Of a DNA stretch of 60,317 nt, positions 825-60,317 are shown in pieces. Source of the DNA: a virus (Duplodnaviria; Caudoviricetes). The position numbers and the translations under genes are program-made. Under the pieces are notes generated by a model that was not told the DNA's origin, did not search any database, and saw only the letters and a list, made by a program, of their open reading frames with translations. Within the stretch, counting starts at the first letter, position 1, and each line of letters starts with the position of its first letter. The stretch covers positions 1 through 60,317 of IMG/VR virus record IMGVR_UViG_3300044841_000118; one strand, given 5' to 3'.

Positions 825-862
825 ACCCTTCCAAATCTGAAGAACCCGCAGGGAGCACACCC

Positions 863-1060: not shown

Positions 1061-1070
1061 CACCCCTTCC

Positions 1071-10920: not shown

Positions 10921-11552
10921 GAATAGTCACCCTGTCAGATACGCATGGACTCCACCACAAAGTCCATATTCCAGACGGCGACGTGCTGGTCCACGCTGGT
11001 GATTTCATGAACTTCGGAACCAGAGTTCAAGAAGCTACAGACTTCCTATCCTGGTTCGCGGGGCATCCGCATTCCGAAAAGATTTTGGTCGCCGGGAATC
11101 ACGACATCCTGTTCGAGCAGGACCCGTCGTGGGCTAATTCCCTGATCCCACCGGGCGTCCAGTACCTGAAGAACTCCGGTACAACGATCCACGGTATTCG
11201 GTTCTGGGGCTCTCCGTTCACTCCGCGCTTCATGGAATGGGCGTTCATGGCTGACCCCGGCGAACCTATCGCCCACATCTGGTCTCAGATTCCAGGAAAG
11301 ACGGATGTTCTGATTACACACGGGCCTCCGCTCGGGATTCTGGACGAGATGGACGAGCCCAAGCAACGAGTCGGCTGTGAAGAACTGCGCAAGGCTGTGG
11401 ATCGGATAAAGCCGCGCTACCACATCTTCGGTCACATCCATGCAGGCTACGGAGTCGAGATGCCGGAAGAGTCCGAAACCCTGTTCGTCAACGCTGCCGT
11501 GTGCAACGAGCAGTACCGCCCGATCAACCAGCCCATTGTCATCGACGTTTAG
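10917..11552 (+). CDS. metallophosphoesterase (MPPED/239FB-like)
   Basis: SDTH, HAGD, AGNHD, THGPP, FGHIH. Confidence 0.9.
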   Translation: MRIVTLSDTHGLHHKVHIPDGDVLVHAGDFMNFGTRVQEATDFLSWFAGHPHSEKILVAGNHDILFEQDPSWANSLIPPGVQYLKNSGTTIHGIRFWGSPFTPRFMEWAFMADPGEPIAHIWSQIPGKTDVLITHGPPLGILDEMDEPKQRVGCEELRKAVDRIKPRYHIFGHIHAGYGVEMPEESETLFVNAAVCNEQYRPINQPIVIDV

Positions 11553-21892: not shown

Positions 21893-22593
21893 TAGGCTTG
21901 AATCACAGCGAACGAGAAGGACACGTTGAGGATCGTGCTGCTGCCTACCGGGTTGGTCACGGTGACATAGATCGTGCTGACGCGGGTGTTGTCGTCGTTG
22001 AACCCGATCACGATCGGTGAGCAGGTCCAGTCCATCTCATTGGGCGCCAGCAGCAGAAAGTCAGCGATGATGCCGGACTCTGAGCCGGGTACCACCGGGC
22101 TGGTCTGGCTGCGGCCCAGATCAGCAACCTGCGCGGCCTTGGTCGAGTACATCCGGATGCGCGCCGGCGCGTTGACAGTGACGTGAAGCAGAGCAAACAC
22201 CGTCGCCATCGAAACCGACACCTGGATGGACTGTCCCTGGTTCAGGACCGGTGTGGTCACCGAAGCATTCTGAATCGTCTGCGCCGCTACGCTGCTGCCC
22301 GTCGTGCCTGCGGAGGAAGAGCCACCAGTGCCGATAACCGTCGTGGTCGACCCCGACGAAGCTCCGCCGTTGTTGGTCGGCTGCGACGGCGTCATGGTGC
22401 GCGTCTGGGGAATCCCCGGCATGTCGAACTGGCGCAGCGAATCAGGGGTGACCGAGACCGGGGGCAGAGGACAGCGGAGGAAGTTCGGCGCGGCCTGCGC
22501 AGCCTTGACATCACCACCACTCGGCGTGGGCCGGGTGGTCGGCTCGTATCTCTCCCGGTTGATCGGTGCTGTCGCTTCTGCTAGGGTCGCCAT
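21892..22593 (-). CDS. tail-associated structural protein
   Basis: ATG 22593 coupled to nozzle stop; PARIRMY beta domain. Confidence 0.65.
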   Translation of the reverse strand: MATLAEATAPINRERYEPTTRPTPSGGDVKAAQAAPNFLRCPLPPVSVTPDSLRQFDMPGIPQTRTMTPSQPTNNGGASSGSTTTVIGTGGSSSAGTTGSSVAAQTIQNASVTTPVLNQGQSIQVSVSMATVFALLHVTVNAPARIRMYSTKAAQVADLGRSQTSPVVPGSESGIIADFLLLAPNEMDWTCSPIVIGFNDDNTRVSTIYVTVTNPVGSSTILNVSFSFAVIQA

Positions 22594-25500
22594 TATTTCT
22601 CGGAAGAATAGCCGCCGTACAATGTGAGACTTAGAAGCTCGTTGGCAGCGTCTTCTGCGGGCCATGCGAACTTGATCTGCATGTGACGGCAGATTGCGGG
22701 CAACTGTGTCTGCGAGAAGTACCGGCGGTCCATGTAGAGGGAGGCGCTGGCCGGCAGTTGCGTCGGGTCGGGAACGTTGTTCGGCAGCGCCTCGAAGGTT
22801 CCGGATATCTCGTCGAGCAGCACGCTAATCGACGCGCGCGACCCGAGAGCACTGGCGTCCGTCGTCAGGAAGGAGAGTTCGGCAATCTGGCCGGGCAGTG
22901 CGAGCACTAGCGAACCGATGATGCCGAATGCTGTGAAGGCCGTACCGTTGTCAGTGTTGGCGGACAGGTTGCGCTGCAGGAGTTGGCCGGATCCGGTGGG
23001 TCCGACCAGTAGTTTGTGCACGCCCGGGGTGATCTCGATGGACTGGACCGCCTTGACGCCGCCAGTTATGGTCGCGAACGGACTCCACATCATGCCGGTC
23101 TCGGGCGCGGGCGTGGGGCACAGCCGGTACCATCCGGTCGAACCGTTCGCCACGTACAAGGCCTTGTCCTGTGAGCCGTCCACATGCCAGCTGACGTACA
23201 CCTGCGTCGGGTCCCACAACTGAAGCTGGTCGCCGATCGGGAAGCCCACTTCGGAGACTCCGGAGCTCGGGTCGAGCGCGATCAACTGCCGGTCGGCCGT
23301 GAAGAGGTAGATCAGCGTGCCGTTGACATCCAGCGCGTTGTAGGAGAGCAGCCCGATGCCGGTGAGGTACGGCGTGAACAGCAGCGGACTGTTCGCGGTT
23401 GCGTTGCCGACGCCCAGGTAGATGTCTGAGACGGTGAAGACCAGCAGGCCGATAGATGTCGGCACCATGCGCTTCACCGCGCTGGGAAAGGTCGCGAAGT
23501 TGATCGGCTGAAATCCGTTCGTGCCGTTGCCGATGGGCGTGTCCGGGCCGGTCGACCAGTACACCGTGTTGCCCAGCGAGACGAAGATCCGGCCAAGGTG
23601 GTAGGTCAGGTTGACCACTCCCACCAGTGGTGGCGTGTTCTGTAGCGCCGTTGGTGCCTGCAGCAGGATGTTCAGTCCGCGGTCGGTGGTCGTGTCTGTA
23701 TACCCATTGGCGAGATAGTCCTGAATCGCAAGCGTGTACGGGGTGTTTCCCGGGCCGGGGATCAGGAAGAAAGTCGCGCCGCCGTCCTGTGTCCGGAAAA
23801 TGGCCACGTAATCAACCTGCGGGTCATAATTCGCCGGGATGCCGCCGCTCACCGCTACGCCCGTGGAGGCGCGGAAGTTGCCAGTCGCCGCAGTGATCGG
23901 GCTGACATTCGACACCGTGTCGTCCAGCGTGTTGACCAGCGAAATGCAATACTCCCACCCGCCGTTGACTGTGGTCAGCGTGCCAGTGGGTGGCGAGCTC
24001 GCCTGCCCCTGGTTGATCCAGAGCAGGTTCGGATTGTCGGCGGTCGTCCCGGAAAATGTGGTGGAGAATGACGGCTGCGTCGTCCCGGACTTACCCGCTT
24101 CATACGGGTTCTGGGTGTTGTTGTTCGGGTCGATGATGTCCGCGGTCGTGATGTATGAGGTCAGCGCGATCCATGCGTAATCCGCGACCGGGCCGATGTT
24201 CGTCCAGGTGAGCGCGCCCTGCGACTCGGACACCGTCGGATAGCTCGGGGCGAAGCTCGTGTTCCAAGCCGGCCAGATGGGTTGGGTTGCACCGCTCTCT
24301 GCGGGGTCCGGGATGATGTTTTGCCCGTTGACAGTGACCTGCAGAGTCTGGCCGGAGTGGTACCAGTAGTCCCAATCGATCTCGATGGGATACGTGCCGG
24401 CGGAGGGGAAATTCACCACCACCGAGTCGGTATTCGTGCCCGCCATGTTCGTGCATCCGAACACCGGGAAATTGCTCACCGCCGTCGTGGTCTGGCCGAT
24501 GGGGTTGGTGGTGAGGCCGCTCACCATCTCGGCGCCGCCGCCGATGCCCCAGATCAGGCCGTCCTGATGGATGAGGCTGAAGGTGTACTGCCCCGGCGCA
24601 GGGACTTCGATGTTGGCGATCAGCGCGAGCGCGTAGTTCTCTGAGTTGCTGGGGAACGGGACCGTGTACCCGGTGGTCTCGCCCGCGCCGTTCAGCGTCG
24701 CCCACTGCACTGGCTTGCGGTTCGGGTTCGCTGGCGGATTGAACAGGAAGCTGTTGCCGGAAGCGGTCGCCACTGCGCTGCCCGTGGTTGTCGGGAAGGT
24801 GAGGATGCAAGCGCCCACCGGCCCGCTGTGCGGCGCGTTGTAGAGGTAGGCGTTGATCGCCCCGGTGGTCTTGATGCCGGAGAAGCCTTCAAGCTTGAAC
24901 AGGCAGGGTGTGCCGACGGCTGTACCGATGATGAACTGGCCTTGCGGGTACGTGGTATGTGGATGCCATACCAGCGAGGCCGCCGTCTGGATCATCGTCC
25001 AAATGGCCGTGCCGTCTGTCGTGGTCGTACCGACGGAAGTAGCCCATGCCGGGGCGCTGTTGCTGCTCGTGCCCGCAGTTGTCACCTTCTGCAGGTTGCC
25101 GTTGCTGTCGATGACGACTGGGTCGTTCGCGTAGAACGTGTTTGGCTGCCAGGAGTTGCTCTGACCCCCGTGAACGATGGTCGGCTTGACACTCGGCGCG
25201 GCGATGCCCCAGTTCTGGAGCGGGTTGCCGCGATTCACCCAGATGATCGTGCCGTCGTAGGTCTTGCCGAGCAGCGTCGTGTTCCAGGTCGGCTGCGTGG
25301 TGCCGGTGATCGCAGTGCCGCCGGAGAGCACGGCGGCTTTGCCAGTATCGGCGACGCTGGTGTCTGCATGGGTGAAGTTGTTCGTGAACGACGCGGTGAA
25401 GGTCGTGCCGCTCACTGCGGTGATGGTGACGGTCTGGCCGTTCAGCCAGGTCGCTGTGCTCAGGCCAGAGAACCGGATGCTCAGGTCAACGGCGAGGATC

Positions 25501-26147
25501 GCGCTGATGTCAGCGGTGCAGGTGATCGTCAGGACGTTGCTGGCCACCGCGACGTGCGCCACCGTGGCGAAGACGCCGAACAACTGCTGCATGTTTCCGT
25601 TCGGGTCGATCAGGAAAGTCTGGGTGCTGGCGATGTCCAGCGTGGTGTTGGCGGTCCATGCGAGCAGCGAGTTCTGCAGCTTCTTTTGGTCAATGCCGTT
25701 GCCGAAGAACAGGCAGTTGGCGACGCTCTGCATGTAGCTTTGGCCAGCGCCAGCGCTCTTTGTCCACAAAATGGACTTGGTGCTCGCCCCTGTCGCGTTG
25801 TAGAGACCGTCGGCCTGGTCGGCCAGTACTTTGATCTGCTCGGTACGCGCGTTGAACAGCCGCAGTTCGTAGAAGAAGTCGACCGCGTTGAAGGTCTGGG
25901 AGTTGTAGACCGTGTGCCCGGGTCGACGGATGGCAGTCAGTCGGTTGGAGAGTTCGATGTTGCTGCCATCGATGAACGCATCACCGCGTGGCCCGTAGAA
26001 CTTCTCCTCCATACGCGTGCTCGCGGCATCGCGCAGGGGGCTGCGCTGCGTCCACAGGCCGGTACAGAAGCGACCGGTCCAGAGAGGGGCGTAGTGGGAA
26101 CTACGCAGCGCCTGCGCGCCTGCTAGTTGAAGGGCATTTCCAGACAT
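22593..26147 (-). CDS. tail nozzle (P22 gp10/T7 gp12-like) with large inserted repeat and PA14-like region
   Basis: N-terminal SNIEL...RRPG; C-terminal propeller-like GRIFV..G..VYWS and CRHMQIKF. Confidence 0.7.
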   Translation of the reverse strand: MSGNALQLAGAQALRSSHYAPLWTGRFCTGLWTQRSPLRDAASTRMEEKFYGPRGDAFIDGSNIELSNRLTAIRRPGHTVYNSQTFNAVDFFYELRLFNARTEQIKVLADQADGLYNATGASTKSILWTKSAGAGQSYMQSVANCLFFGNGIDQKKLQNSLLAWTANTTLDIASTQTFLIDPNGNMQQLFGVFATVAHVAVASNVLTITCTADISAILAVDLSIRFSGLSTATWLNGQTVTITAVSGTTFTASFTNNFTHADTSVADTGKAAVLSGGTAITGTTQPTWNTTLLGKTYDGTIIWVNRGNPLQNWGIAAPSVKPTIVHGGQSNSWQPNTFYANDPVVIDSNGNLQKVTTAGTSSNSAPAWATSVGTTTTDGTAIWTMIQTAASLVWHPHTTYPQGQFIIGTAVGTPCLFKLEGFSGIKTTGAINAYLYNAPHSGPVGACILTFPTTTGSAVATASGNSFLFNPPANPNRKPVQWATLNGAGETTGYTVPFPSNSENYALALIANIEVPAPGQYTFSLIHQDGLIWGIGGGAEMVSGLTTNPIGQTTTAVSNFPVFGCTNMAGTNTDSVVVNFPSAGTYPIEIDWDYWYHSGQTLQVTVNGQNIIPDPAESGATQPIWPAWNTSFAPSYPTVSESQGALTWTNIGPVADYAWIALTSYITTADIIDPNNNTQNPYEAGKSGTTQPSFSTTFSGTTADNPNLLWINQGQASSPPTGTLTTVNGGWEYCISLVNTLDDTVSNVSPITAATGNFRASTGVAVSGGIPANYDPQVDYVAIFRTQDGGATFFLIPGPGNTPYTLAIQDYLANGYTDTTTDRGLNILLQAPTALQNTPPLVGVVNLTYHLGRIFVSLGNTVYWSTGPDTPIGNGTNGFQPINFATFPSAVKRMVPTSIGLLVFTVSDIYLGVGNATANSPLLFTPYLTGIGLLSYNALDVNGTLIYLFTADRQLIALDPSSGVSEVGFPIGDQLQLWDPTQVYVSWHVDGSQDKALYVANGSTGWYRLCPTPAPETGMMWSPFATITGGVKAVQSIEITPGVHKLLVGPTGSGQLLQRNLSANTDNGTAFTAFGIIGSLVLALPGQIAELSFLTTDASALGSRASISVLLDEISGTFEALPNNVPDPTQLPASASLYMDRRYFSQTQLPAICRHMQIKFAWPAEDAANELLSLTLYGGYSSEK

Positions 26148-37452: not shown

Positions 37453-37530
37453 TGGCTGGCAGAGTAGGACTCGAACCTACATAGGCCGCATTAACAGTGC
37501 GGTTCTCTGCCCAGATTGAGATATCTGCCA
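37453..37530 (-). tRNA. tRNA-Asn (GTT)
   Basis: acceptor TGGCAGA/TCTGCCA, G73, CCA; anticodon arm CCGCA-CTGTTAA-TGCGG; T-arm GTAGG-TTCGAGT-CCTAC. Confidence 0.95.
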
Positions 37531-49955: not shown

Positions 49956-50124
49956 ACGGCCTCCGTGAACTATGGAGCAATCAGGCGGGGGAGCATCCCG
50001 CATCTAGTGGCCGCCGACATGTCGAGTGCCGCTCATCTTGCATTAAACGACCGATCGCATGTTGCGGTGTGTGCAGCCCTCCCACCGCGAGAGGCTCGTA
50101 ACGTGAGGTCTCCGCTGCTGCCTT

Positions 50125-50283
50125 TTAGAACCAATCCCACGTACCCCAGTGCCGGTGGCTCCTGGGTATCTGGGGCTCTTCCTTCTTGGTCTCGCGCTTT
50201 GCCCGGCGCCGATCGATGCGGTTCCAGATGCGCTTCAGTACCGATGGCGGTCCGCAGCCCTTCGATTTCCGAGTACGCGACAT
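50125..50283 (-). CDS. small basic protein (52 aa)
   Basis: MSRTRKSKG...RIWNRIDRRRAK...WDWF. Confidence 0.55.
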   Translation of the reverse strand: MSRTRKSKGCGPPSVLKRIWNRIDRRRAKRETKKEEPQIPRSHRHWGTWDWF

Positions 50284-50287
50284 CGGG

Positions 50288-50437
50288 CTACTTGCCCTTG
50301 ACCTTCTTGAGCGCCGGGTTCTTGCGCTTCGCGGCGGGGCTAGCGTTGCGGGAAGACGAGGCGAGGATCGCGCCAGCGGCCTTCTTGCTCACGCCTTCCT
50401 TCTTGGAAATCTTGTTCTCGACACTCTTGAACGACAT
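50288..50437 (-). CDS. small basic protein (49 aa)
   Basis: MSFKSVENKISKKEGVSKKAAGAILASSSRNASPAAKRKNPALKKVKGK; GGAGG RBS. Confidence 0.7.
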   Translation of the reverse strand: MSFKSVENKISKKEGVSKKAAGAILASSSRNASPAAKRKNPALKKVKGK

Positions 50438-50593
50438 TTACCGACCTCCGACCTTCATGGCGATGTCAACCAGAGCACGGACGTTCACCCGCTTGCCCTG
50501 CTCTGCCAGTTGCTTATGGAACTCGGGGGAGTCCAGGCAGTCGGCTAGGGTCGGGAGGGCACTGCGGAGCAGCTGCTTGGTCTCCATATCCAT
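50438..50593 (-). CDS. hypothetical protein (51 aa)
   Basis: AAGGA RBS; abuts neighbours. Confidence 0.55.
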   Translation of the reverse strand: MDMETKQLLRSALPTLADCLDSPEFHKQLAEQGKRVNVRALVDIAMKVGGR

Positions 50594-50750
50594 CTAGTCC
50601 TTCTCCTTGTCGAACTCGTGGCCGTCGGCGTCTATGGTGCTGGGGTCGTTGACGCGCGCAACAGAACTGGATCCACCACCGCTGGTCTTGATTCGCATAC
50701 TTACTTAGATGCGTAATCCCTATGGTATTTACGCGCGGCATTTGGAGATT

Positions 50751-51167
50751 TTACAAACCGTAGAGGCTGCGCGGCTCGACTCCCCGGTCGGCGGCCACCA
50801 GCGCCATGGCGGTCATCTCCGTGGCAATCTCGTTCGCGTAGTGCGCCTTCCCCTTCAGCACCAGCAGGACCTCCCCGAACCGGAGATGCAGCAGTTCATG
50901 AACAACCGTCACCTCCAAATCGTGGCAGGCGTGTGGTCCGTCGTCCTCCGGTATCTGCGCCGGGTCCTTGATGATCACATGCGCACGTAGGTGTGTCACG
51001 TTCCCACGCGCCTCTGCAATGCTGTCGAAGTCATCCGGTGCAGGCTTCACCTCGATGAGGTAGTCCTCCAGCCTGAGCCGGGGTACCCACTTGGCGACGT
51101 AGAATTCGGCATCACGCAGGAACGCCGGTTTTGCTGCTTTCCGTTTTCCCATTTTGGGTTTCCTCAC
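50751..51167 (-). CDS. HExxH zinc-metallopeptidase-like protein
   Basis: W...LRLEDY...TVVHELLH...E. Confidence 0.75.
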   Translation of the reverse strand: MRKPKMGKRKAAKPAFLRDAEFYVAKWVPRLRLEDYLIEVKPAPDDFDSIAEARGNVTHLRAHVIIKDPAQIPEDDGPHACHDLEVTVVHELLHLRFGEVLLVLKGKAHYANEIATEMTAMALVAADRGVEPRSLYGL

Positions 51168-51535
51168 CAGACTCCGTTGAGCGCGCCGATAGCCGCGAGG
51201 CGCTTCATTTCACGTTGGAAAGCATGACCGTGGACGTTCTTGCAGTCGAACCCGTTGGTAGGGTTGTTCCGCAGCTTCCAGTGCACCATCTCGTGCAGCA
51301 GCAGAAGGTTCCAGATCCAGCGGTAGGGCTTGAACTTGCGCCACAACCGGATGACTCCTTCGGTGACCGGGCCGTCGTCAATCCGGTACCCTGTGCAGCA
51401 ACCAGCGCAGTCGAACGGTATCCCCGGAATCTTGGGGCTGGACATCCACTGGACCTTGCACGGCGGCAGGTGCCCGCGGAAGTAGCGGCGGTTGAAGATG
51501 TCGAACATTTCCTGCGGTGTCTTCTTGGCCGACAT
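51164..51535 (-). CDS. SprT-like zinc metalloprotease
   Basis: FNRRYF.G.LP...LLHEMVH...HGHAF. Confidence 0.85.
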   Translation of the reverse strand: MSAKKTPQEMFDIFNRRYFRGHLPPCKVQWMSSPKIPGIPFDCAGCCTGYRIDDGPVTEGVIRLWRKFKPYRWIWNLLLLHEMVHWKLRNNPTNGFDCKNVHGHAFQREMKRLAAIGALNGVW

Positions 51536-51538
51536 ACC

Positions 51539-51793
51539 CTATTTGTTCTTCTCCACGAACACATGGATCATCTGGTCGACTTCGAACTCCGCCATGCCCC
51601 ATGGTTTGTCTAGGGTCTGCAGCGTCAGGGTCCCGGCGGCCGCGTCGAACTCGTAGGAGACCTTTGAGTCGAGGGCTTCGGCTACACCCTTGTCGTCGTT
51701 GATATCCAGGCCGGTCTTGGCGAGGAGGGCGGCCTTGAGGCGCTGCCACCGGTCATGGGTGAACGGGGCGAAGGACTGGATCTCGTGCATCAT
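51539..51793 (-). CDS. hypothetical protein
   Basis: coupled to def. Confidence 0.65.
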   Translation of the reverse strand: MMHEIQSFAPFTHDRWQRLKAALLAKTGLDINDDKGVAEALDSKVSYEFDAAAGTLTLQTLDKPWGMAEFEVDQMIHVFVEKNK

Positions 51794-52335
51794 CGCCCAG
51801 CCACCTTGCGGGTGCGTTCTTCCCGCTTGTGGATCTTCCGGTACCGGGTGAGCAGCAGGTCGCGCTTCACCGGCCCGAGGTGGTCCCAGAACATTCGGCC
51901 ATGGAGATGGTCCAGTTCATGCTGAACAATGCAGGACACCACACCGTCCACCGTCTTCTCGAACCACTCGCCTTTTTCGTTCTGCGCGCGGACCGTGACT
52001 TCCCTGCGTCTCTCGACGATGCCTGCAATCCCGGGCGCGCTGAGGCAACCCTCCTGGCTCAGGACCGTATCGTCGGACCAGTCCATGATTAGGGGGTTGA
52101 CCAGAACCAGCGTCTCGGGGAACTCAACCTTCTCTTTACCCTCGTACCCTTTTTCAGGGATTCGCACGATGGCAACCCGGAGGGAGGCGCCGATCTGAGG
52201 CGCAGCAAGTCCGGCGCCGCGGGCCATCTCGAGGATGCGGATCATGCCAGCGACCAGCGTCTCGAGGACGGGGCCGAAGGCGGTGACCTCCGCGGCGGGG
52301 TGGGTGAGGATCGGGTCGGGGTAGCGGACGATCAT
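51790..52335 (-). CDS. def: peptide deformylase
   Basis: GAGLAAPQIG, EGCLS, QHELDH. Confidence 0.95.
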   Translation of the reverse strand: MIVRYPDPILTHPAAEVTAFGPVLETLVAGMIRILEMARGAGLAAPQIGASLRVAIVRIPEKGYEGKEKVEFPETLVLVNPLIMDWSDDTVLSQEGCLSAPGIAGIVERRREVTVRAQNEKGEWFEKTVDGVVSCIVQHELDHLHGRMFWDHLGPVKRDLLLTRYRKIHKREERTRKVAGR

Positions 52336-52505
52336 ACGGGCTCCTTCTTGAGTTCGGCGCGCACCATGCGGCGTCGCCGTCGGTTGTACTGGGCCTTGAT
52401 CTGCCGGACCACCCCAGCGGTGTGCCCGTACCACTTACGCATACGGGTCAGGGCGTCGTACTCGTCTCCGCCTTTGAGAGGTATTCGGTCGTTGCGTTCT
52501 GTCAT
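52332..52505 (-). CDS. small basic phage protein (57 aa)
   Basis: KGGDEYDALT..R.W...IKAQYNRRRR; ATGA overlap with def. Confidence 0.65.
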   Translation of the reverse strand: MTERNDRIPLKGGDEYDALTRMRKWYGHTAGVVRQIKAQYNRRRRRMVRAELKKEPV

Positions 52506-52811
52506 CACCGCTTCTCCGTGTGAAAGAATTTGCGCGCGCGTTGCCAGGCGTTGACGTCTCTTACAGAAGCGTCGAGGGGCTTCCCCACCCGGGGGTCCGA
52601 TCCAAATTAAGGTTCCCCCACACCCACCCGCCGGCCAGAGCAGCGGACGACATCACCACCCGGCGCCGGCAGACGCATCGATCCACATAAGCGCTGGCAG
52701 CTGAGGGAGTATTTCTGGAGCATCCAGGGGTCGATCAGAGTTATTTCTGGGGCGCGTTTGCGCAAACCCTTTGTAATCAGCGAAGCATACTTGGTAGAGT
52801 CATGCACTCTA

Positions 52812-53111
52812 CTAAGTTCTGAGACTTGCGGAGCTCTCCAGCCTTTGGATCCTGCGCTCGAGAGTGTGCAGTCGAGTGTGATCCGGCCCAAAGATCAACA
52901 GCAGGTTGTCTGGCGCGTTGTTCTGGCGGTCGCCGTCGACGTGGTGAAGGACAAAGCCCTCTCGCATCTTCTCGTCGAGCCAGGTGGCACTTACGTACGG
53001 ATGCGCATCGAGCCAAACCGCGCGGTATTGCCGCGGTGTGAGGGGCATTCGGTCTGGATTCATATTGATTTTGAGCATAAGGATGTATGTTTCGGCGTTG
53101 ATCCGTAGCAC
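52812..53111 (-). CDS. HNH endonuclease
   Basis: VLHHVDGDRQNNAPDNL...HTRLH. Confidence 0.8.
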   Translation of the reverse strand: MLRINAETYILMLKINMNPDRMPLTPRQYRAVWLDAHPYVSATWLDEKMREGFVLHHVDGDRQNNAPDNLLLIFGPDHTRLHTLERRIQRLESSASLRT

Positions 53112-53333
53112 TCTGTACGACTTTCGCGCGCTTTCAATACGAATCGCTTACTTTTCGTGAGAATGACGATGTGCCAGGCAAACTGTGTCTGTCCCAAACC
53201 ACGGGCAGGAGATGCTATGTTTACGCGCGCCGCACCCAACCAGCGCACACTGCAGCGCATAGATCCGTGCCTCTTACGCCTGTCATTTCCTCTTCACTTG
53301 TCTCTATGTGTAGAGGTACAGGCAGTTGCGAGT

Positions 53334-53489
53334 TTATGTGTTGAGGAGCGGGCCGGCGCGCGGTTGTGACAGGCACGGGATGGCCAGAACGACGTGCCCG
53401 ACCCTGTAGCCGTCGGCGCCATTGATCGCGAGAATGACGTGACCAACGACGTAGGGCGGTTTGCCTGGCTTTGGGTTGTCTTGGCTCAT
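53334..53489 (-). CDS. 51-aa peptide with internal repeat
   Basis: YVVGHVILAI...YRVGHVVLAI; GCGTCTAA promoter box upstream. Confidence 0.45.
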   Translation of the reverse strand: MSQDNPKPGKPPYVVGHVILAINGADGYRVGHVVLAIPCLSQPRAGPLLNT

Positions 53490-53752
53490 AGGGAAATACC
53501 GGGCCGGCAGTCTCAATCTGGGCGAACCTGCCACTTTCGTCCGCAGATCGCGTGTAAATTCCTCCGCGTTTTCTGCCTCTAAGTGATTAGACGCAAAAAG
53601 CATGGGGCAATTGACAAGTATATTTTCAGGCCGGCCGTGGTCTGCCTGAGATTGGGTGCAGTTCGTGCGGTTCCGGCGTGTCCAGTTTCTGGACACTGGC
53701 TTGTGTGGCGCGCGCGTAGCCAAACTTTCATCACATACACACACTTTACGTG

Positions 53753-53780
53753 TTGACACTAAGTTTGTTTGTGCTACTCT
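53753..53780 (+). promoter_or_regulatory. sigma70 early promoter 1
   Basis: TTGACA-N16-TACTCT with extended TG. Confidence 0.75.
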
Positions 53781-53805
53781 AGACACATCAACAGAGGAGC
53801 CACCC

Positions 53806-54015
53806 ATGCAGACCTTCACCGGACAAAAAGAGACAGCGGCAACGGTAGCAAAAGCACAGCGCGCACTCATCGAGCAGCGTGCATACGTCATCAGCGTGTG
53901 GGGCAATCTCTGGATTGAGCAGTACGACCCAAAGCACTCGGCAGCCGTTGACGAACTGAAGAGACTGCGTCGGATCTTCGCCGTTAAGCAGGAGGCACTC
54001 AAGTGCGGACAGTAA
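53806..54015 (+). CDS. early hypothetical protein
   Basis: GAGGAG RBS. Confidence 0.7.
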   Translation: MQTFTGQKETAATVAKAQRALIEQRAYVISVWGNLWIEQYDPKHSAAVDELKRLRRIFAVKQEALKCGQ

Positions 54016-54422
54016 CGGAAGTGACAGACGTACTCGGCACGTCAAAGCCTGTTGCCCGCTATTACGGGGACGGCAGTTTCGATTGCCCGCACTGCTCCTA
54101 TCCTGTGCGCGCGGATCAAGGCCTGAGTCTCGAAGCACATAACCCGTGGTGCATCGCAAACCCTGCTTACCCTGTGGATTCGGCGCTCCAGTTTGTCGCG
54201 GATCGTGAGCGTAAGGAGCAGGAAGAAGCAGAGCGCCGGCGCAGTCGCGATGCGTCTATCGCGCGCGCCGAGGAATACCGGCAGTCCCAGGAACGCACCA
54301 GAACTGCCAAGCTGTTGGACGCGAAAGCGCGCGGACTCTGCGTTACCTGCTTAGTCCGCAGTGATTTTCGCAAGGAAGTGAAGCATCGGAAGGCTTGCCC
54401 CCTGACTGAGGCAACAGCATGA
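54003..54422 (+). CDS. early Zn-finger/coiled-coil protein
   Basis: GGAGG RBS; CPHC...HNPWC; CVTC...H..AC. Confidence 0.7.
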   Translation: MRTVTEVTDVLGTSKPVARYYGDGSFDCPHCSYPVRADQGLSLEAHNPWCIANPAYPVDSALQFVADRERKEQEEAERRRSRDASIARAEEYRQSQERTRTAKLLDAKARGLCVTCLVRSDFRKEVKHRKACPLTEATA

Positions 54423-54556
54423 CCCCTCACATCCCCTTGCCTGCTACCCCAAAGAAGGAGTGGAAGCGGCCGGCGATCGAAATCTTGGCGGTATCGCGCG
54501 CCGAGCATGGACACGGGCATGGCTCCGACAGTGTCTGGCGTCACAAGAGCGGGTGA
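54419..54556 (+). CDS. lasso-peptide-precursor-like peptide (45 aa), copy 2
   Basis: MTPHIPLPATPKKEWKRPAIEILAVSRAEHGHGHGSDSVWRHKSG; GAGG RBS; ATGA overlap. Confidence 0.75.
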   Translation: MTPHIPLPATPKKEWKRPAIEILAVSRAEHGHGHGSDSVWRHKSG

Positions 54557-54602
54557 TGTCCGGAAAATGGACAACTCACCCAAAGTATGTAGCAATATTG
54601 TA

Positions 54603-54630
54603 TTGACACGTTGTTAGATTGTGCTATTCT
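54603..54630 (+). promoter_or_regulatory. sigma70 early promoter 2
   Basis: TTGACA-N16-TATTCT with extended TG. Confidence 0.75.
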
Positions 54631-54655
54631 CAGTTCATCGCAGGAGGAAACGACA

Positions 54656-55060
54656 ATGCAGGCTGAATCGCTCATCGGAAAGACTCTGGTATGCGCTGAG
54701 ACGGGCAAGACGTTCGTAGGCGCGGCCGACGGAATCACCACCAACTACGCGCACAGCAGCGAAGGCGAGATCCTCTCGGATGAGGGCGTCAACATTCGCG
54801 AGCAGCGCGGGTTACTTGATCGCTCAAAACCTTTCTATGCCTATGTCTCGAGCGATGGGAAGCACATCACGGGTTGGAAGGGCAATGTGCTCGGCACCAT
54901 CATGAGCTCGCACTCCGTCCGCCTGACTCGCCAGTCCTACACCCACGGTTCGACGATTCAATCCTATGTGGTTCGCGACATTCACGGTGGGATGTGGCAT
55001 GGCCGCGGCAATCCCGGAATCTGCATCACCCTGCGCGCCTACAAAACCAAGGCAGCCTAA
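54656..55060 (+). CDS. early hypothetical protein
   Basis: AGGAGG RBS; ITGWKG..LG...G.WHGRG. Confidence 0.75.
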   Translation: MQAESLIGKTLVCAETGKTFVGAADGITTNYAHSSEGEILSDEGVNIREQRGLLDRSKPFYAYVSSDGKHITGWKGNVLGTIMSSHSVRLTRQSYTHGSTIQSYVVRDIHGGMWHGRGNPGICITLRAYKTKAA

Positions 55061-55092
55061 GCCAGTCCAGATTCTGGACAGAGGAGAAGAAC

Positions 55093-55395
55093 ATGACAGC
55101 TTACTGGACATCTAGCAGCGGATTGATCGATCTGGAGATGACACTCGAGCGAGCAGCGAGCGTCTCCCACTCCGGCCGATGTGATGACGACGTCGACGCG
55201 CTATCCCTCGTCCCTGAGATCGCCAAACAACTGGAAGCAATCAAGGCGGATGACCTACGCCGGGAACTGAAAGAGTACGGCGCATGGGATGCCGAAGAGT
55301 TGGTAGACCACCAGCAGAATCTCCAGCGTGTCCTCTGGCTTGCGGGCTGTGACATCAAGGAGCGCGCCGGGGAAGAAGACGAGGATGCGGAATGA
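55093..55395 (+). CDS. early hypothetical acidic protein
   Basis: GAGGAG RBS; SHSG.CDDDV...ELKEYGAWD..EL. Confidence 0.75.
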   Translation: MTAYWTSSSGLIDLEMTLERAASVSHSGRCDDDVDALSLVPEIAKQLEAIKADDLRRELKEYGAWDAEELVDHQQNLQRVLWLAGCDIKERAGEEDEDAE

Positions 55396-55721
55396 GCCCC
55401 CGAGCCGGCGAACGCCCCATCCTCACCCCGATAGTGACCCGCGCGCTGCTGCATACCGTCACCAACATCGGCCAGCTGTCGCGGGATGAGATCAACCAAC
55501 TCGAGCGCGCCATCCGTCACGGCATCCTGGCCAAAGGTAAAGGCGGGCCGTATCCCGCGCTGAAAACCGTCTATGCCCGCTTCGGGTTTGACTTCGAGCA
55601 GGAGCGGCGCGAGTGGGTCGCTTACATGATGCGCCTGCATGAACTGGAAACGTCCGGCCGTCGCATTGAAGCGCTCGAACTGATGAAAGCCGGCCCAGAC
55701 TCAAAGGAGACCAATGCTTAA
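55392..55721 (+). CDS. early hypothetical protein
   Basis: ATGA overlap. Confidence 0.7.
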   Translation: MSPRAGERPILTPIVTRALLHTVTNIGQLSRDEINQLERAIRHGILAKGKGGPYPALKTVYARFGFDFEQERREWVAYMMRLHELETSGRRIEALELMKAGPDSKETNA

Positions 55722-55857
55722 CACCATCGCAAACACCATCAGCCGGTTTATCTGCCTGCACCGTGGCTCGCAGCTGCGGCGCGTTGAAGGTTCCGTGCTC
55801 TACATCGAGTGCATGGAATGTGGCGCCTGCAGCCCTGGAGTTGTGACCGGCGAGTAG
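55714..55857 (+). CDS. small Zn-binding protein (47 aa)
   Basis: AAGGAG RBS; C.H...CMECG. Confidence 0.6.
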   Translation: MLNTIANTISRFICLHRGSQLRRVEGSVLYIECMECGACSPGVVTGE

Positions 55858-55916
55858 TCCAGTAAATGGACGGTTCCCACTTCGGGAATAGCGGTAAACA
55901 TCACACAATTTGTGTA

Positions 55917-55944
55917 GTGACACGAAGTTTGTTTGTGCTATTCT
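55917..55944 (+). promoter_or_regulatory. sigma70 early promoter 3
   Basis: GTGACA-N16-TATTCT; spacer almost identical to promoter 1. Confidence 0.7.
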
Positions 55945-55970
55945 CTGTCTATCCCAAGGAGGACACAACA

Positions 55971-56546
55971 ATGCGAGACATTCAGACCTACGCCAAGGAC
56001 AGACTAGCCGAACTGATGCACGACAAGGTTGAGACGGTTGACGATCTCCGCTCCGAGGCTAATGACCTTGAGGAAGATTTTGACGGCGACAGCTTCGCTC
56101 CTTACTACAACCAGAAGCAAGAAGTGATCGATCAGTATGAGCGCGAGTTTGGCTCTGACGCCGAGGACATTTGCGGTGAGGCAACTTTCAAGGCGTCTGA
56201 TTACATGGCTGCCATGTCCGCTTACGCTGACGCGATCGGATGGACCGCATTCTCTAGCTACTTCGCAGAAGCAAAGGAAGAGTTTTCCGATGCACTGGAC
56301 GCGATCCAAGAGGCAATCGAGGCGCGCGGACTAGACGCCGATGACGTCAAGGTGAGCGTTTCCAGTTCCGACCCGTTCGGCTGGTCTGCCCACAACCGCG
56401 AGGACGCTACTGGCTCGTTGACGCTCTGCATCCACGAGTCTGGCCAGTTAGACGGAATCAACGGTATCAGTGCCGAAGTATGGTCTGGCTTGCATCTGTC
56501 CTTCACCTGGGATCCGAGCAAGCCAGCAGCAAACGAAGCGGAGTAA
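55971..56546 (+). CDS. highly acidic early protein (Ocr-like DNA mimic candidate)
   Basis: AAGGAGG RBS; D/E-rich; DGDSFAPYY. Confidence 0.6.
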   Translation: MRDIQTYAKDRLAELMHDKVETVDDLRSEANDLEEDFDGDSFAPYYNQKQEVIDQYEREFGSDAEDICGEATFKASDYMAAMSAYADAIGWTAFSSYFAEAKEEFSDALDAIQEAIEARGLDADDVKVSVSSSDPFGWSAHNREDATGSLTLCIHESGQLDGINGISAEVWSGLHLSFTWDPSKPAANEAE

Positions 56547-56589
56547 CGCGTTCGTTCCCACTCTAACAATGCAAGACAGGAGGCACCAC

Positions 56590-56790
56590 ATGACGAACTA
56601 CAACTGTGATGGATCTGGACCGCACTCTGAAGGCGAAGTCAAGCTGATGCCAACAGGCGGAAGCGGCAACCTCATACTCTGCCACAACTGCTGGAATCAC
56701 GAGCTTGCCTATCGCAATAGCGAGATGGGCGAGTTTGCACAGTTCGACCTGCCCCTATGGTCACAGGGCAAGGTTTACGAGACAGTCTAA
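56590..56790 (+). CDS. early Cys-rich small protein
   Basis: AGGAGG RBS; NCDGSGPH...ILCHNC. Confidence 0.7.
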   Translation: MTNYNCDGSGPHSEGEVKLMPTGGSGNLILCHNCWNHELAYRNSEMGEFAQFDLPLWSQGKVYETV

Positions 56791-56925
56791 AGCAATCAGT
56801 TTCCTCAAAACCTGAAACAATCATCCTGTGCAACACTCAGCCCCTGGAACGCCAATAGCGATGCATACCGAATCAGCTTAGAAGGCTGATGCGCTAAGAC
56901 CGTGCCCAAGGAAAGGCTAGCACCC

Positions 56926-57210
56926 ATGCACTGCCCCATCTGTTACGAACGAAGCAAGGGACAAGGAGCGCGGCCGCTCCGGCGCAGCATCGGCAGGGTG
57001 GCCGCCGAATCCCTGAACCGCGCATCTGAATCCGCTATGCGAAATCTGACCAGTCCAGTTTCTGGACACATAGGGGTGATGGACGCGCGTAGTGCGGCAC
57101 ACGCAGCAAGACATCTGGAGATAGAAGCGCCGGCGCGGTTTGCCTATCTCCTTCCAGACTCCCCCGAGGGGGTGGGCCAGTTATTTTTGAAACGAACGGA
57201 GGCTGTATGA
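56926..57210 (+). CDS. hypothetical protein
   Basis: CPIC start; coupled to next gene. Confidence 0.5.
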   Translation: MHCPICYERSKGQGARPLRRSIGRVAAESLNRASESAMRNLTSPVSGHIGVMDARSAAHAARHLEIEAPARFAYLLPDSPEGVGQLFLKRTEAV

Positions 57211-57488
57211 GCATTCATCCCGGACCGTGGCGCGTAAAGCACGGCTATCAGATCGTCGATGGTAATGGTGTCCGCATAGTGGACGCCGAGAGAACAGGAC
57301 TCAACGACGCAACCATACAGGATTGCCTCCGCCTGATCGCGGCCGCACCGGCAATGCTCAAAGCACTGCAGGCTGTTTATGCCGGTGTGGTCAAGTCACG
57401 CAATGAGGAACGTCTTGTCATCAACATCAGTCTTCAGGCATTCAAAGACGTGGAAGCGGCCATATCTAAGGCCACAGAGCCCGAATGA
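57207..57488 (+). CDS. common phage hypothetical protein
   Basis: PGPW...LIAAAPAML motif. Confidence 0.75.
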   Translation: MSIHPGPWRVKHGYQIVDGNGVRIVDAERTGLNDATIQDCLRLIAAAPAMLKALQAVYAGVVKSRNEERLVINISLQAFKDVEAAISKATEPE

Positions 57489-57630
57489 GCGACCCGAGCA
57501 AGCCTGACGCCCCGGAGGGTGCTTTCCTTCCCTCCGACGCGCCAGCGCTGCCACTGATAGACCGTGTGGTAGGTTGGCTGGAGAAGATCGATGCGGCGAC
57601 TGAACCGTTGTTGCCAGATGAGGAGGAGGC

Positions 57631-57951
57631 TTGAACCGACCGAAGACCCGCGAAGAGTGGGCCGCGCTGCTTGAGACCTTCCCGGAAGAGCTCGGCGACC
57701 TGCTGATCAGTGCTGGGCAGAAGATGCGCGGGCGACTCTACCCCGGCGGGCGGTCGCCTGTGCTGAAGCCCTGTCCGAAATGTGGAGAGTCGTACTCCGC
57801 GCGCGAACTCCGCACACATCAGCGACAGTGTGGCGCCCATCTAGTACCGTGCAAGTTCTGCGGGCGGAAGTGGGGAGCGGCTGGCATCTATCTGCACGAG
57901 GTCCGCTGCTCCGAGAATCCGAACCGCAAAGAGAAAAAGGCCACCCGGTGA
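57631..57951 (+). CDS. double C2HC zinc-finger protein
   Basis: CPKC...H...C and CKFC...H...C; GGAGG RBS. Confidence 0.7.
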   Translation: MNRPKTREEWAALLETFPEELGDLLISAGQKMRGRLYPGGRSPVLKPCPKCGESYSARELRTHQRQCGAHLVPCKFCGRKWGAAGIYLHEVRCSENPNRKEKKATR

Positions 57952-57962
57952 AGGATGGCCTT
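57937..57962. terminator. terminator between convergent arms
   Basis: AAGGCCA/TGGCCTT stem with A-tract. Confidence 0.55.
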
Positions 57963-58005
57963 ACTGGGAGATTTCATCAAGAACCGCGCGGCGACTCTCC
58001 CTGGT

Positions 58006-58188
58006 TCACACCTTGTACAACTTTCGTCTCTCTGGGTACTGCTTGAGGTAAGCGGCGATCCGTTCCGGATGCTGCACTGACAGCCGTTTGGTCTTGTGAT
58101 CCCGGCAGACCAGGCCGGCCGGCTGGTGGCATCTCGGGCACTCGACGTGGGTCATTGCGTCCGTGTTGAGCATGCCGGTCACAACCAT
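58006..58188 (-). CDS. small Zn-finger protein
   Basis: CPRC..PAG..C...H..R. Confidence 0.6.
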   Translation of the reverse strand: MVVTGMLNTDAMTHVECPRCHQPAGLVCRDHKTKRLSVQHPERIAAYLKQYPERRKLYKV

Positions 58189-58319
58189 CGTACCGCTAGC
58201 TTACTCGTACCACACGGCCATCTCTTGGTGGATTCTGGCTCTCCACTCAGATTGATAGACCGAGTCGAACCGCATGCGTAACCGCCACGCCCACTCCTTC
58301 AGTTTCTCTAGCATTTTCC

Positions 58320-58517
58320 TCACCCCAGGATAGAAGCTGATTGCGCCTTGGCGCGGCGCTTGCGGCTCTCGTTCGAGCGGTCCCCTAGTTTCGTCTTCAG
58401 CATCTCAAGCAGCTGTTTGGCTGCGTCCAGGCGCTGGTCCGTGGTGTACTTGCCGGCCTTGTCCTCGGCGATCGAGATCAGAACGCGGCGCAACCGCTGT
58501 GGCGTTGAGGCGGCCAC
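58320..58517 (-). CDS. hypothetical protein
   Basis: helical, basic; in a chain of abutting small ORFs. Confidence 0.55.
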   Translation of the reverse strand: MAASTPQRLRRVLISIAEDKAGKYTTDQRLDAAKQLLEMLKTKLGDRSNESRKRRAKAQSASILG

Positions 58518-58624
58518 TTACTGCGCATCCAGTTTCTGGACAGCCAGCTGATTCTTCGGCCCACCCCAAGATAGTTCCGAACCGGAATCATCACTTAGGG
58601 CGTCGAGATTGATCAACGAGGCGG

Positions 58625-58849
58625 TCATGTCGTCTTAGAACCCCAAACGATCTTTGGCAGCACGGAGATGCTACCCCAATACATTTCCACGTATTCCGCA
58701 GGGCGCAATTTACCTGTAACAGCGAAGTCGAGAACGCTTGCGGCCAGAAAGAGAGGCCAGACCATCACGGCGAAGAACAAACCAGGCAGAGCGGCCAGCG
58801 GTGTGAGCAGTACGCGGAGGGTCAACTGGAGTAGACGGCGGATGGTCAT
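58625..58849 (-). CDS. small membrane protein
   Basis: hydrophobic hairpin; GCATC promoter box upstream. Confidence 0.55.
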   Translation of the reverse strand: MTIRRLLQLTLRVLLTPLAALPGLFFAVMVWPLFLAASVLDFAVTGKLRPAEYVEMYWGSISVLPKIVWGSKTT

Positions 58850-58933
58850 GGGAGGGGTGCTGGTAGTTAAGATGCGGATTGCTGAGAAAAATTAACATAC
58901 TTTTTCTCAATCGTTGTCCGCGTCTTGCGCGTC

Positions 58934-59017
58934 CTAAACCAAACCAAAACCTATACCAAACCTAAACCTAAACCCTACGGGCATCTTCCGGGATTATCCG
59001 GGAGACTCCGGGAGAAC
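58934..59017. repeat. ori-like region: AAACC-rich tract plus three 10-bp iterons
   Basis: CTAAACCAAACCAAAACCTATACCAAACCTAAACCTAAACCCT; TCCGGGATTA/TCCGGGAGAC/TCCGGGAGAA. Confidence 0.55.
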
Positions 59018-59115
59018 TGTAAGCTCCACAAAACACACGGCTTGCTGCAGGGGGTATCACAAAGGTAACTAAATTGTCTCTAAATTGTCATTTTCGCGTT
59101 TATGATGTGCTCTCA

Positions 59116-59295
59116 ATGACCAAAACGAAGGGCGGCAAGGTGCCGCAATGCCCTATCCATGGGCGGGATCTGGTGTGCCCGTCTTGTGCAGCAATCGAAC
59201 GGGGCCGGAAGGGCGGGGAGAAGACCTCCGCCGAAAAAGCGAAAACCGCGCGGGAGAACGCGGCCAAAGCTCGTAAGAAACGGCACCCGAAGTGA
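59116..59295 (+). CDS. small basic KGG-motif DNA-binding-like protein with Zn knuckle
   Basis: CPIH...CPSC; GRKGGEKTSAEKAKTAREN. Confidence 0.65.
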   Translation: MTKTKGGKVPQCPIHGRDLVCPSCAAIERGRKGGEKTSAEKAKTARENAAKARKKRHPK

Positions 59296-59329
59296 AGCCG
59301 GGCGGGTCTGTCTCCAACCCGCCCAACCC

Positions 59330-60043
59330 CTACGCGGCTTCTTCTTCTTCTACTTTGCGTGGGCGGCCGCGCTTGGCCCGTACGCCTTCGGCGATCGCAA
59401 TCGGCTCGAAACTCTGCCGGTTAGATATCCCCATTGCGGTCATCAACATGCCCACGTGTGCGTCAAGAAACGCTTTCCGTGCTTTGTGGCTGCGGGGCAG
59501 ACGCTTGACGCGGCTGTCCACAAACCGGAAGCACTCGAGCTCGATACGGTCCAGGCTGTACGTTCTCTCTTGCAGGTAATGCTCTTTGCGGAACTGGACG
59601 ACCTTGTCCAGGTAGTCGTGAACTTTCTTCGGATCTTGCGTCTTGGGCGGTGGCAGCGCAGCAACCGCTTCCGTGAAACGACCAAGGGGGCGCTCCTCAT
59701 TCGTCCCCATCATGTCCAGGCCCCGAGACATCGCTGCCAGCAAGTAAATCTCCGGCAGGTTGGCCTTCGCGTTCTCGAACCCGTTCATTAAGTTGTAGGC
59801 AGTCTTGCGGTCAAAGCGGATCTCGTCCAGAAAACGGACGAACACCCCCTTGGGCTGCAGGATTTCGCGGATGCGGACCAGCCGCTCCCCGATTGCCATG
59901 CGTGCCCGCCCGAAGTTGACCATGTCACTGCCTAAACCTTTGGTCTCCTTCTCAAGCGTGGCGCGTTCCTTTGGATCGAGTTCCCCCAGGTGGTCGATCA
60001 CCGCTTCGAAGTTCGTCAATGTGATGTCTGTGTTCTTCATCAT
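59330..60043 (-). CDS. DUF3102-like DNA-binding protein with AT-hook
   Basis: AIGERLVRIR...G.FVRFL...RKTAYNLM; C-terminal KRGRPRK. Confidence 0.65.
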   Translation of the reverse strand: MMKNTDITLTNFEAVIDHLGELDPKERATLEKETKGLGSDMVNFGRARMAIGERLVRIREILQPKGVFVRFLDEIRFDRKTAYNLMNGFENAKANLPEIYLLAAMSRGLDMMGTNEERPLGRFTEAVAALPPPKTQDPKKVHDYLDKVVQFRKEHYLQERTYSLDRIELECFRFVDSRVKRLPRSHKARKAFLDAHVGMLMTAMGISNRQSFEPIAIAEGVRAKRGRPRKVEEEEAA

Positions 60044-60317
60044 AAGATGTAGTCGTTACGCCATTCCCCTTTCCCTTTTTGGTAGCAAAGCGAAGATAGC
60101 ACATATGCTTTGTCTCCGCGCAATGACTTTTCTACCATCTTTGTGCCAAATAGGGATTACCCCTTTGGTTGTACACAGCATGGTAAATATTAGCTTGCAT
60201 TATTTCTTGACACGGCACTTTTTACGCCCTACCTTGTACTTACAAATTCAGTTCCAAAGGGCCGTAAATACAAACCCCCATGACTGTTCCCCCCTATTTT
60301 TCGAAGCGCTTTGAAAA

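Follow-up and report, generated by a model that had tools for sequence, protein, structure and literature searches.

What use does a bacteriophage have for two small genes that resemble the precursors of lasso peptides, a class of peptides made by the ribosome and modified after translation (RiPPs)? This question is raised by IMG/VR virus record IMGVR_UViG_3300044841_000118, a phage contig of 60,317 bp with linear ends and a CheckV completeness of 56%, which was analysed over its whole length and is referred to here as the window. The genes concerned are an open reading frame (ORF) of 45 amino acids at 54419-54556 (+), designated copy 2, and a paralogue of 44 amino acids at 1071-1205 (+), designated copy 1. 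An original prediction, made from the DNA alone, had described both as lasso-precursor-like, and profile searches bear this out: judged by sequence, the two copies are homologous to an unannotated peptide family of the Acidobacteriaceae, and the bacterial relatives lie inside lasso clusters. The comparison suggests that the phage feeds peptides of its own into the peptide-making machinery of its host, or jams that machinery.

The two copies are, on the evidence of their sequences, real protein-coding genes under purifying selection. Copy 2 translates exactly as quoted in the original prediction, and the proposed paralogy is supported by a BLASTP alignment with 22/46 identical residues (E 5e-12) and by the shared 14-mer CGCGCCGAGCATGG, which occurs exactly twice, at 1143-1156 and 54497-54510, with 0.00 occurrences expected from 100 shuffles. 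The codons differ at 10 of the 22 identical residues, and a Nei-Gojobori comparison gives a proportion of synonymous differences (pS) of 0.74, which is saturated, and a proportion of nonsynonymous differences (pN) of 0.34. The saturated pS, the lower pN and the differing codons together show that the conservation is at the level of the protein and does not reflect a DNA repeat. The G+C content at third codon positions (GC3) is 0.73 in copy 1 and 0.74 in copy 2, similar to the neighbouring genes. The antisense ORFs 599-1126 (-) and 54167-54595 (-), with GC3 values of 0.56 and 0.62, were rejected as real genes, also because homologues exist for the plus-strand frames only. By profile search the window contains these two copies and no others.

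Neither copy matches Pfam or PHROGs, and a word-based search for close relatives with copy 2 alone returned only copy 2 itself. The best match of copy 2 is the NCBIfam model NF033524 (paeninodin family lasso peptide), with 20.7 bits for a cut-off of 27; the alignment covers the leader, pairing residues 12-33 with model positions 1-22 of 30. Copy 1 does not match this model. Among 28 tested members of the bacterial family, 11 match it at E ≤ 0.01 and none reaches the cut-off. A profile of the two phage copies, searched against 1.84 billion representatives, retrieved four bacterial sequence clusters of 52-53 amino acids (E 6e-5 to 5e-4), which align with the phage copies to the extreme C-termini. 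Searching species-representative genomes with that alignment gave 21 loci, 19 of them labelled Acidobacteriaceae, one a Ktedonobacteraceae metagenome-assembled genome (MAG) and one an Acetobacteraceae MAG. Nine more loci are on metagenome contigs, and 135 clusters at 90% identity come up with a broader alignment, each of them either unnamed or labelled 'hypothetical protein'. To avoid circularity, a host-only profile was built from 113 bacterial members, with no phage copies. Among the 1353 frames of the window it recovers copy 2 with 45.3 bits (E 5e-13) and copy 1 with 42.4 bits (E 4e-12), while the next-best frame scores 6.3 bits. The phage copies are 40-55% identical to the bacterial family members.

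The genomic context of the bacterial relatives was surveyed at 34 bacterial or metagenomic loci, comprising the 21 genome loci, the nine metagenome loci and four extra loci from a survey of 301 Acidobacteriaceae genomes. A lasso cyclase gene adjoins the peptide gene in 32/34 loci. When the proteins of locus L013 (Acidobacteriaceae bacterium KBS 83) were used in tblastn searches, the cyclase was found at 20/21 genome loci, 9/9 metagenome loci and 3/4 extra loci, these three adjoining both the cyclase and the kinase gene, and the kinase gene was found at 17/21 genome loci. At L007 the contig stops 28 nt beyond the peptide, and the B2 and kinase genes are present. One locus, L034, matches weakly (E 2e-5): its frame contains a TGA, cluster genes are missing and no peptide is recognisable there, so that it was taken as a chance or decayed match. 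At L013 the peptide gene occupies 9944-10105 and is directly followed by the gene of an Asn-synthase-like protein of 656 amino acids (PF00733 Asn_synthase, 4.9e-33); Pfam identifies a Hpr_kinase_C-like gene upstream of the peptide, as well as a nucleotidyltransferase fused to a transglutaminase-like domain (NTP_transf_5 + Transglut_core3). In NCBIfam, the lasso B2 model scores 74 bits, over its cut-off of 33, and the lasso isopeptide cyclase and lasso PqqD chaperone models are best matches with 255 bits (under the strict cut-off of 525) and 60.5 bits (under the cut-off of 80), respectively; the HprK-related kinase model reaches 32.7 bits, far under its cut-off. In 5/5 genomes tested, a PqqD gene is located some 3.3 kb upstream of the peptide; tblastn detects it at 18/30 loci. 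Judged by this context, the bacterial family represents the precursor (A) of a kinase-type lasso cluster.

The residues shared by the phage and bacterial peptides correspond to the parts that such a cluster would need. In copy 2 the leader carries W15-x-x-P18-x-I20, and Gly31, the putative first core residue, is followed by Asp37, the putative ring acceptor, and by His42 and Ser44. For copy 2 the leader motif reads W-K-R-P-A-I, for copy 1 W-T-K-P-A-L; its general form, Y/W-x-x-P-x-L, is described as the leader motif recognised by the PqqD-type RiPP recognition element (RRE) (PMC10368454). No variation is seen among the 113 bacterial members at the W and the P, the D of L-D-I-L, one Leu, one Ala, the core Asp or the near-terminal Ser. 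The Gly is present in 109/113 members, and so is the His. The prediction of a Ser next to the C-terminus thus holds for 113/113 bacterial members and for both phage copies. The accompanying description as a conserved leader with a variable core was half right: Gly, Asp, His and Ser are conserved throughout the family, and in the phage the core invariants are better kept (4/4 in both copies) than the host-invariant residues of the leader (5/8 in copy 2 and 7/8 in copy 1).

In a lasso macrolactam the core starts with a small residue and carries an Asp or Glu at position 7-9. We infer a leader/core boundary that places the conserved Gly at position 1, and with this boundary both phage copies have the small first residue and an Asp within the expected range. 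The Gly-to-Asp spacing is 7 in copy 2 and most bacterial members, and 8 in copy 1 and locus L022, so that the Asp8 of the original prediction stands for copy 1 and becomes Asp7 in copy 2 when counted from the conserved Gly. In this register a Trp occupies position -16 and a Glu position -2 in both copies, the latter being Gln or Glu in the bacterial members. An alternative register, with Ala28 as residue +1, would place a Ser or Thr at -2 but the Asp at position 10 or 11.

Several further features of the bacterial clusters were observed. In most bacterial precursors one residue follows the invariant Ser, and those of L010 and L021 end at the Ser. In some clusters an M20 peptidase gene comes directly after the cyclase gene (12772-14148 in L013, with the same placement in L006, L008, L010 and L029), and is followed by PadR and MacB/FtsX genes; a carboxypeptidase in such clusters could expose the Ser. 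The two MAG loci labelled Ktedonobacteraceae and Acetobacteraceae (L015 and L018) contain the same cluster and peptide, with enzymes 38-50% identical to those of KBS 83, and may have arisen by horizontal transfer or by wrong binning. Two Acidobacteriaceae genomes contain a second, diverged lasso cluster that has the same architecture (L032 (G053), L033 (G260), L035 (G286)). Its precursors have a Leu at the position of the conserved Gly, so that this Gly is a candidate only for the true first core residue of the family. Apparent frameshifts in the precursor gene of L020 (around 10060-10100) and the B1 gene of L008 (6468-6848), both in long-read MAGs, are probably assembly errors.

The phage itself can be linked to the same bacterial family. 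The record originates from a soil phage; the sequencing runs listed for it are two soil-metagenome DNA runs, with no RNA run, and the pieces of the second run miss the ORF at 54419-54556. By far the best match of the terminase is that of Tunturiibacter phage Tunturi_3 (E 2e-44, 28% identity), and Tunturi_3 matches 11 ORFs of the window, mostly in the structural module, with 28-49% identity. By these sequence matches the window phage is a distant relative of Tunturi_3, which was isolated on an Acidobacteriaceae strain and likewise encodes a tRNA-Asn (PMC11924767). The kinship ties the phage lineage to the peptide-owning bacterial family independently of the peptide. Moreover, the Tunturi_3 genome is complete at 97.6 kb, a size that agrees with the CheckV estimate for the window. 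A prophage link was sought through the window terminase; none of 401 Acidobacteriaceae genomes gave a match at E ≤ 1e-10. Two other approaches to the host were discarded as uninformative, namely the peptide deformylase, which is 38-46% identical to Acidobacteriaceae proteins, and the tRNA-Asn, which gave three weak matches among 101 genomes. No close relative of the sliding clamp turned up in IMG/VR, and a megablast search of positions 50000-60317 against the phage collection gave no match.

Among the other comparisons with Tunturi_3, the best conserved gene is that of an 1184-residue protein at 22593-26147 (-), 49% identical over 933 residues to Tunturi_3 gp19, which is labelled 'head decoration protein'. 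Tunturi_3 also encodes a phosphoesterase in addition to its tRNA-Asn. The bacterial relatives of the peptides are probably phosphorylated, and it may be by coincidence that the phage has a phosphatase as well as the peptides.

Maturation enzymes were looked for in the window and in other viruses. Searches of the window with PF00733, PF13471 and PF05402 (cyclase, B2 and PqqD) gave no match, and neither did tblastn with eight ORFs of the L013 cluster region, among them those of the cyclase, NTP-B2 fusion and kinase. Thus the bacterial homologues lie beside genes for a lasso cyclase and B1/B2, and the phage copies do not. A lasso cyclase alignment searched against IMG/VR identified no contig encoding a relative. 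Viral relatives of the peptides were likewise absent from pattern scans of IMG/VR with two-copy and six-member alignments, and tblastn searches of each copy against 50,697 phage records gave no match at E ≤ 1. The complete genome of Tunturi_3 contains no lasso genes and no such peptide, the best of its 2260 frames scoring 6.3 bits (E 1.2). The original prediction would call for a leader conserved in related phages; Tunturi_3, the sole related phage found, has no homologue.

How, then, could precursors without enzymes be used? By their homology, both copies derive from the A (precursor) gene of an Acidobacteriaceae lasso cluster of the kinase type. The best reading, which the comparisons support tentatively, is that the phage precursors would be matured in trans by the lasso enzymes of the host. 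The PqqD-type B1 chaperone of the host would bind the W-x-x-P-x-[LI] leader of the phage peptide, and the B2 protease would remove this leader. The Asn-synthase-like cyclase would then join the new N-terminal Gly to Asp7 in copy 2 or Asp8 in copy 1, and the HPr-kinase-like host enzyme would modify the conserved Ser, such that infected or lysogenic cells would produce phage-specified lasso peptides. In evolutionary terms, a phage of Acidobacteriaceae may have captured and duplicated only the gene of the lasso substrate, possibly in order to make lasso peptides of its own or to shut down those of the host. Maturation in trans is favoured by the combination of purifying selection, the lack of enzymes alongside, and the retention of the residues that the enzymes would need; that the host processes the peptides, and that the product has any effect, is what we infer. 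The fact that both copies keep 4/4 core invariants also points in this direction, because a pure leader decoy would not need them.

Binding of the leader by the host was also approached by complex prediction. The prediction for the host B1 protein (L013, KBS 83) with copy 2 reached a score of 0.43, and the best of three controls 0.00. In the calibration of the tool this mark is reached by 58/80 solved complexes and 2/110 mismatched pairs, and of those that reach it, only 7 of the 80 solved complexes, together with both passing mismatches, score 0.60 or under. At least 94% of the contacts agree between runs, and the predicted local distance difference test (pLDDT) of the partner is at least 54. 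This model offers weak support for binding. As solved RRE-leader complexes exist, the pass may reflect likeness only, and the predicted complex does not separate a substrate from a decoy.

A number of observations weigh against maturation in trans. The peptide family is carried by 14/301 sampled Acidobacteriaceae genomes, so that most potential hosts would be without the enzymes, and the contig is approximately 56% complete, so that enzymes could be present on the missing part. No second phage with the gene was found in the phage or viral collections searched. In the peptide tree the phage branches have lengths of 1.9 and 2.6, compared to a median of 0.07, and these long branches could signify a changed function or relaxed constraint. 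The sequences themselves depart from the bacterial family at several points. The phage copies lack approximately 8-10 N-terminal leader residues (44-45 amino acids, compared to 51-54 in bacteria); the Asp of L-D-I-L is replaced by Glu in copy 2 and by Thr in copy 1; both copies have an Arg at a site that is D, S, N or E in 110/113 bacterial members and Arg in just one of the 113; and copy 1 has one residue more than copy 2 between Gly and Asp. Lasso leaders are described as having an aromatic residue at -17 and a Thr or Ile/Val at -2 (PMC10368454), and the phage copies have neither this spacing nor one of these residues at -2. The departure at the boundary is, however, common to the bacterial family and thus characterises the family as a whole and not the phage in particular. 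The tree, which is based on 34 columns, does not distinguish one acquisition from two; a single acquisition is hinted at by the common MTP start, the shorter N-terminus and the Arg.

The surroundings of the two genes bear on these questions as well. The ATG of copy 2 (54419-54421) overlaps the TGA (54420-54422) of ORF 54003-54422 (+) as ATGA, and a putative ribosome-binding site GAGG precedes it with a 7-nt spacer, the whole element spanning 54408-54422 (+). This arrangement fits the translational coupling to ORF 54003-54422 that had been proposed. The upstream ORF runs in the same direction and encodes a Cys-rich protein of 139 amino acids, which has no Pfam or PHROG match; its best score in a protein atlas is 0.85, which serves as a lead only. 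Copy 1 lies between an ORF of 65 amino acids (863-1060) and the sliding-clamp gene (1216-2289; phrog_947, E 2.6e-29). Immediately before its ATG an open frame at 1026-1070 (+), which overlaps the stop of ORF 863-1060, reads ..N-T-P-S ahead of the Met and resembles the N-terminus of the bacterial precursors in the hmmsearch alignment. The captured gene was probably longer, with this frame as its remnant.

A sigma-70-like repeat of 43 nt (TTGACA / TG-n-TAYTCT) is present in three copies, with 0 occurrences of the pattern expected, and splits the early region into units. The repeat at 53738-53780 (+; TTGACA ... TGcTACTCT) lies upstream of a small operon ending with copy 2, that at 54588-54630 (+) begins 32 nt past the copy 2 stop and marks the start of the next unit, and the third is found at 55902-55944. 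The original prediction had placed copy 2 at the end of the first early transcript, for which the promoter-like repeats are the evidence: copy 2 is the last ORF ahead of the second repeat, and no terminator is predicted between the two. Such an architecture of the early region is plausible. Upstream of copy 1, a promoter-like site was looked for and not found, and the different promoter classes proposed for the two copies are conjectural, as are the proposed stage-specific use and phage communication system. Separately, a near-palindromic motif, TCCAGNTTCTGGACA, occurs nine times with at most one mismatch, for an expectation of 0.02. The perfect copies, at 53681-53695, 55066-55080, 57054-57068 and 58528-58542, are all on the plus strand of the early region, and weaker copies start at 6637, 7776, 21391, 26437 and 38046. 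It could serve as an operator or as a promoter element specific to the phage.

The remaining gene content is that of a phage. It includes a DnaB-like helicase gene truncated by the window start, terminase, portal, endonuclease VII and HNH endonuclease genes, and a single tRNA-Asn. The features at 12609-13805 (+), 10857-11552 (+), 7471-8652 (+), 51790-52434 (-) and 37453-37530 (-) are a tyrosine integrase (PF00589, 7e-26), two calcineurin-like phosphoesterases, a peptide deformylase and the tRNA-Asn.

The phage peptides might act on the host enzymes without becoming lasso peptides. As decoys or competitive inhibitors they would bind the B1, B2, cyclase or kinase of the host, be poor substrates, and block the maturation of the host's lasso peptide, with a benefit to the phage if, for instance, that peptide hampers phage growth. 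The retention of the leader recognition motif (W, P, I-L) accords with this proposal, as do the phage-specific changes near the putative cleavage site (the Arg at -4 and the lost invariant Asp) and the early position of copy 2 behind a sigma-70-like promoter repeat. Anti-phage RiPPs have been described among the lanthipeptides (PMC12360287; 10.1101/2024.06.26.600839), and bacterial lasso families were reported in a metagenome study to be co-expressed with defence systems, a relation of co-expression only (PMC11118758). The predicted B1-copy 2 complex fits binding in either case. However, a decoy needs the leader alone, yet both diverged copies keep the 4/4 core invariants and relax those of the leader; furthermore, no anti-phage role for any lasso peptide is recorded in the literature found. 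Inhibition of this kind is considered rather unlikely. Quite unlikely, too, is that the captured gene has left the lasso pathway and acts in unmodified form, as a small protein or a peptide, for instance in His-rich metal binding or as an arbitrium-like signal. The long branches, the differences in the leader and the His/Gly-rich cores would suit such a function, and phage peptide signals exist, as described for AimP (PMC12360287). The kept residues, though, are exactly the invariants of the cluster family, including the putative Gly/Asp pair of the ring, and no hydrophobic signal peptide is apparent on reading the two sequences. An arbitrium-like precursor would be secreted by means of a signal peptide and have the gene of its receptor at its side. 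No neighbour belongs to a recognised receptor-like family, although no search was aimed at receptor models.

Two further explanations were weighed. If the phage possessed a lasso cluster of its own, the maturation genes would lie on the missing ~44% of the genome and the precursors would not be orphans. The CheckV completeness of 56%, the linear ends and the truncated helicase gene at the window start leave room for this, and temperate phages with whole RiPP clusters have been described (10.1101/2020.10.01.322628). Nevertheless, no IMG/VR contig encodes a relative of the cyclase, and the related Tunturi_3, complete with 97.6 kb, lacks lasso gene and peptide alike. In bacteria, furthermore, the precursor adjoins the cyclase, whereas the phage copies lie 53 kb apart along the contig, among unrelated genes. 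A self-contained cluster therefore seems very unlikely. Finally, the genes might be non-functional passenger DNA from a host lasso cluster. The relic of a bacterial N-terminus upstream of the copy 1 start and the lack of a homologue in any other phage searched would be natural for such DNA, but it is hard to reconcile with two copies at saturated synonymous change and a pN of 0.34, with both frames intact and copy 2 furnished with a ribosome-binding site and ATGA coupling, with GC3 values as in real genes, and with flanks that contain no remnant of cluster genes. This last explanation is most improbable. Maturation in trans by host enzymes thus remains the preferred, if tentative, reading.

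If maturation in trans is true, the phage would have an auxiliary gene whose contribution is a substrate and not an enzyme, and this would be the first RiPP element of the lasso type to be linked to a virus. To our knowledge, phage auxiliary genes nearly always encode enzymes, and the RiPP genes known to us on phages come as whole clusters. It would follow that viruses can reprogramme or sabotage a natural-product pathway of the host at the level of the substrate. The lasso family of the 135 clusters, widespread yet unannotated in soil Acidobacteriaceae, would also gain its first functional handle. Literature searches of the main texts of papers yielded no report of a phage-encoded lasso precursor, and the word 'lasso' does not occur in the text of a 2025 review of natural products and phages (PMC12360287) or of the Tunturi phage paper (PMC11924767).

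Comparison with known systems places the phage peptides closest to the Acidobacteriaceae family, with which they have the motif order W-x-x-P-x-L-x-I-L ... A-[EQ]-x-G ... D ... H-x-S-x in common; unlike the members of that family, they are not encoded beside a cyclase, B1, B2 or kinase gene. The paeninodin family provides a second parallel. Paeninodin itself has a C-terminal Ser. The clusters of the bacterial relatives studied here also contain HPr-kinase-like and nucleotidyltransferase genes, and a near-terminal Ser is conserved, but this Ser usually has one residue after it, and copy 2 remains under the NF033524 cut-off. BsfA-type precursors, described by Duan et al. 2023 (PMC10368454), likewise belong to kinase-associated lasso clusters and have leaders that break the Thr(-2) rule, and leaders of this sort are reported there from Acidobacteriaceae as well. 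According to that source, their position -2 is Ile or Val and the aromatic residue is at -17, whereas in the phage copies the Gly register gives Glu and Trp at -2 and -16. The bacterial family may already be among the Acidobacteriaceae precursors of the supplementary figure of the same paper.

Phages with RiPP or bacteriocin clusters (10.1101/2020.10.01.322628) resemble the window phage in carrying natural-product peptide genes, and the window contains a tyrosine integrase. The cluster-carrying phages described there bring enzymes and immunity genes along, while the window has only precursors, in two separate places. Literature searches for prochlorosin together with cyanophage returned nothing relevant. 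Among cellular systems, the prochlorosins and ProcM offer a precedent for precursor genes that lie away from the modifying enzyme, with a conserved leader and a single maturation system; the prochlorosin precursors, however, reside on the chromosome of the producer itself rather than on a virus, and belong to another RiPP class. Seen against these systems, the phage genes represent a known RiPP class in a new genetic setting, which is virus-borne, consists of the precursor only, and is duplicated.

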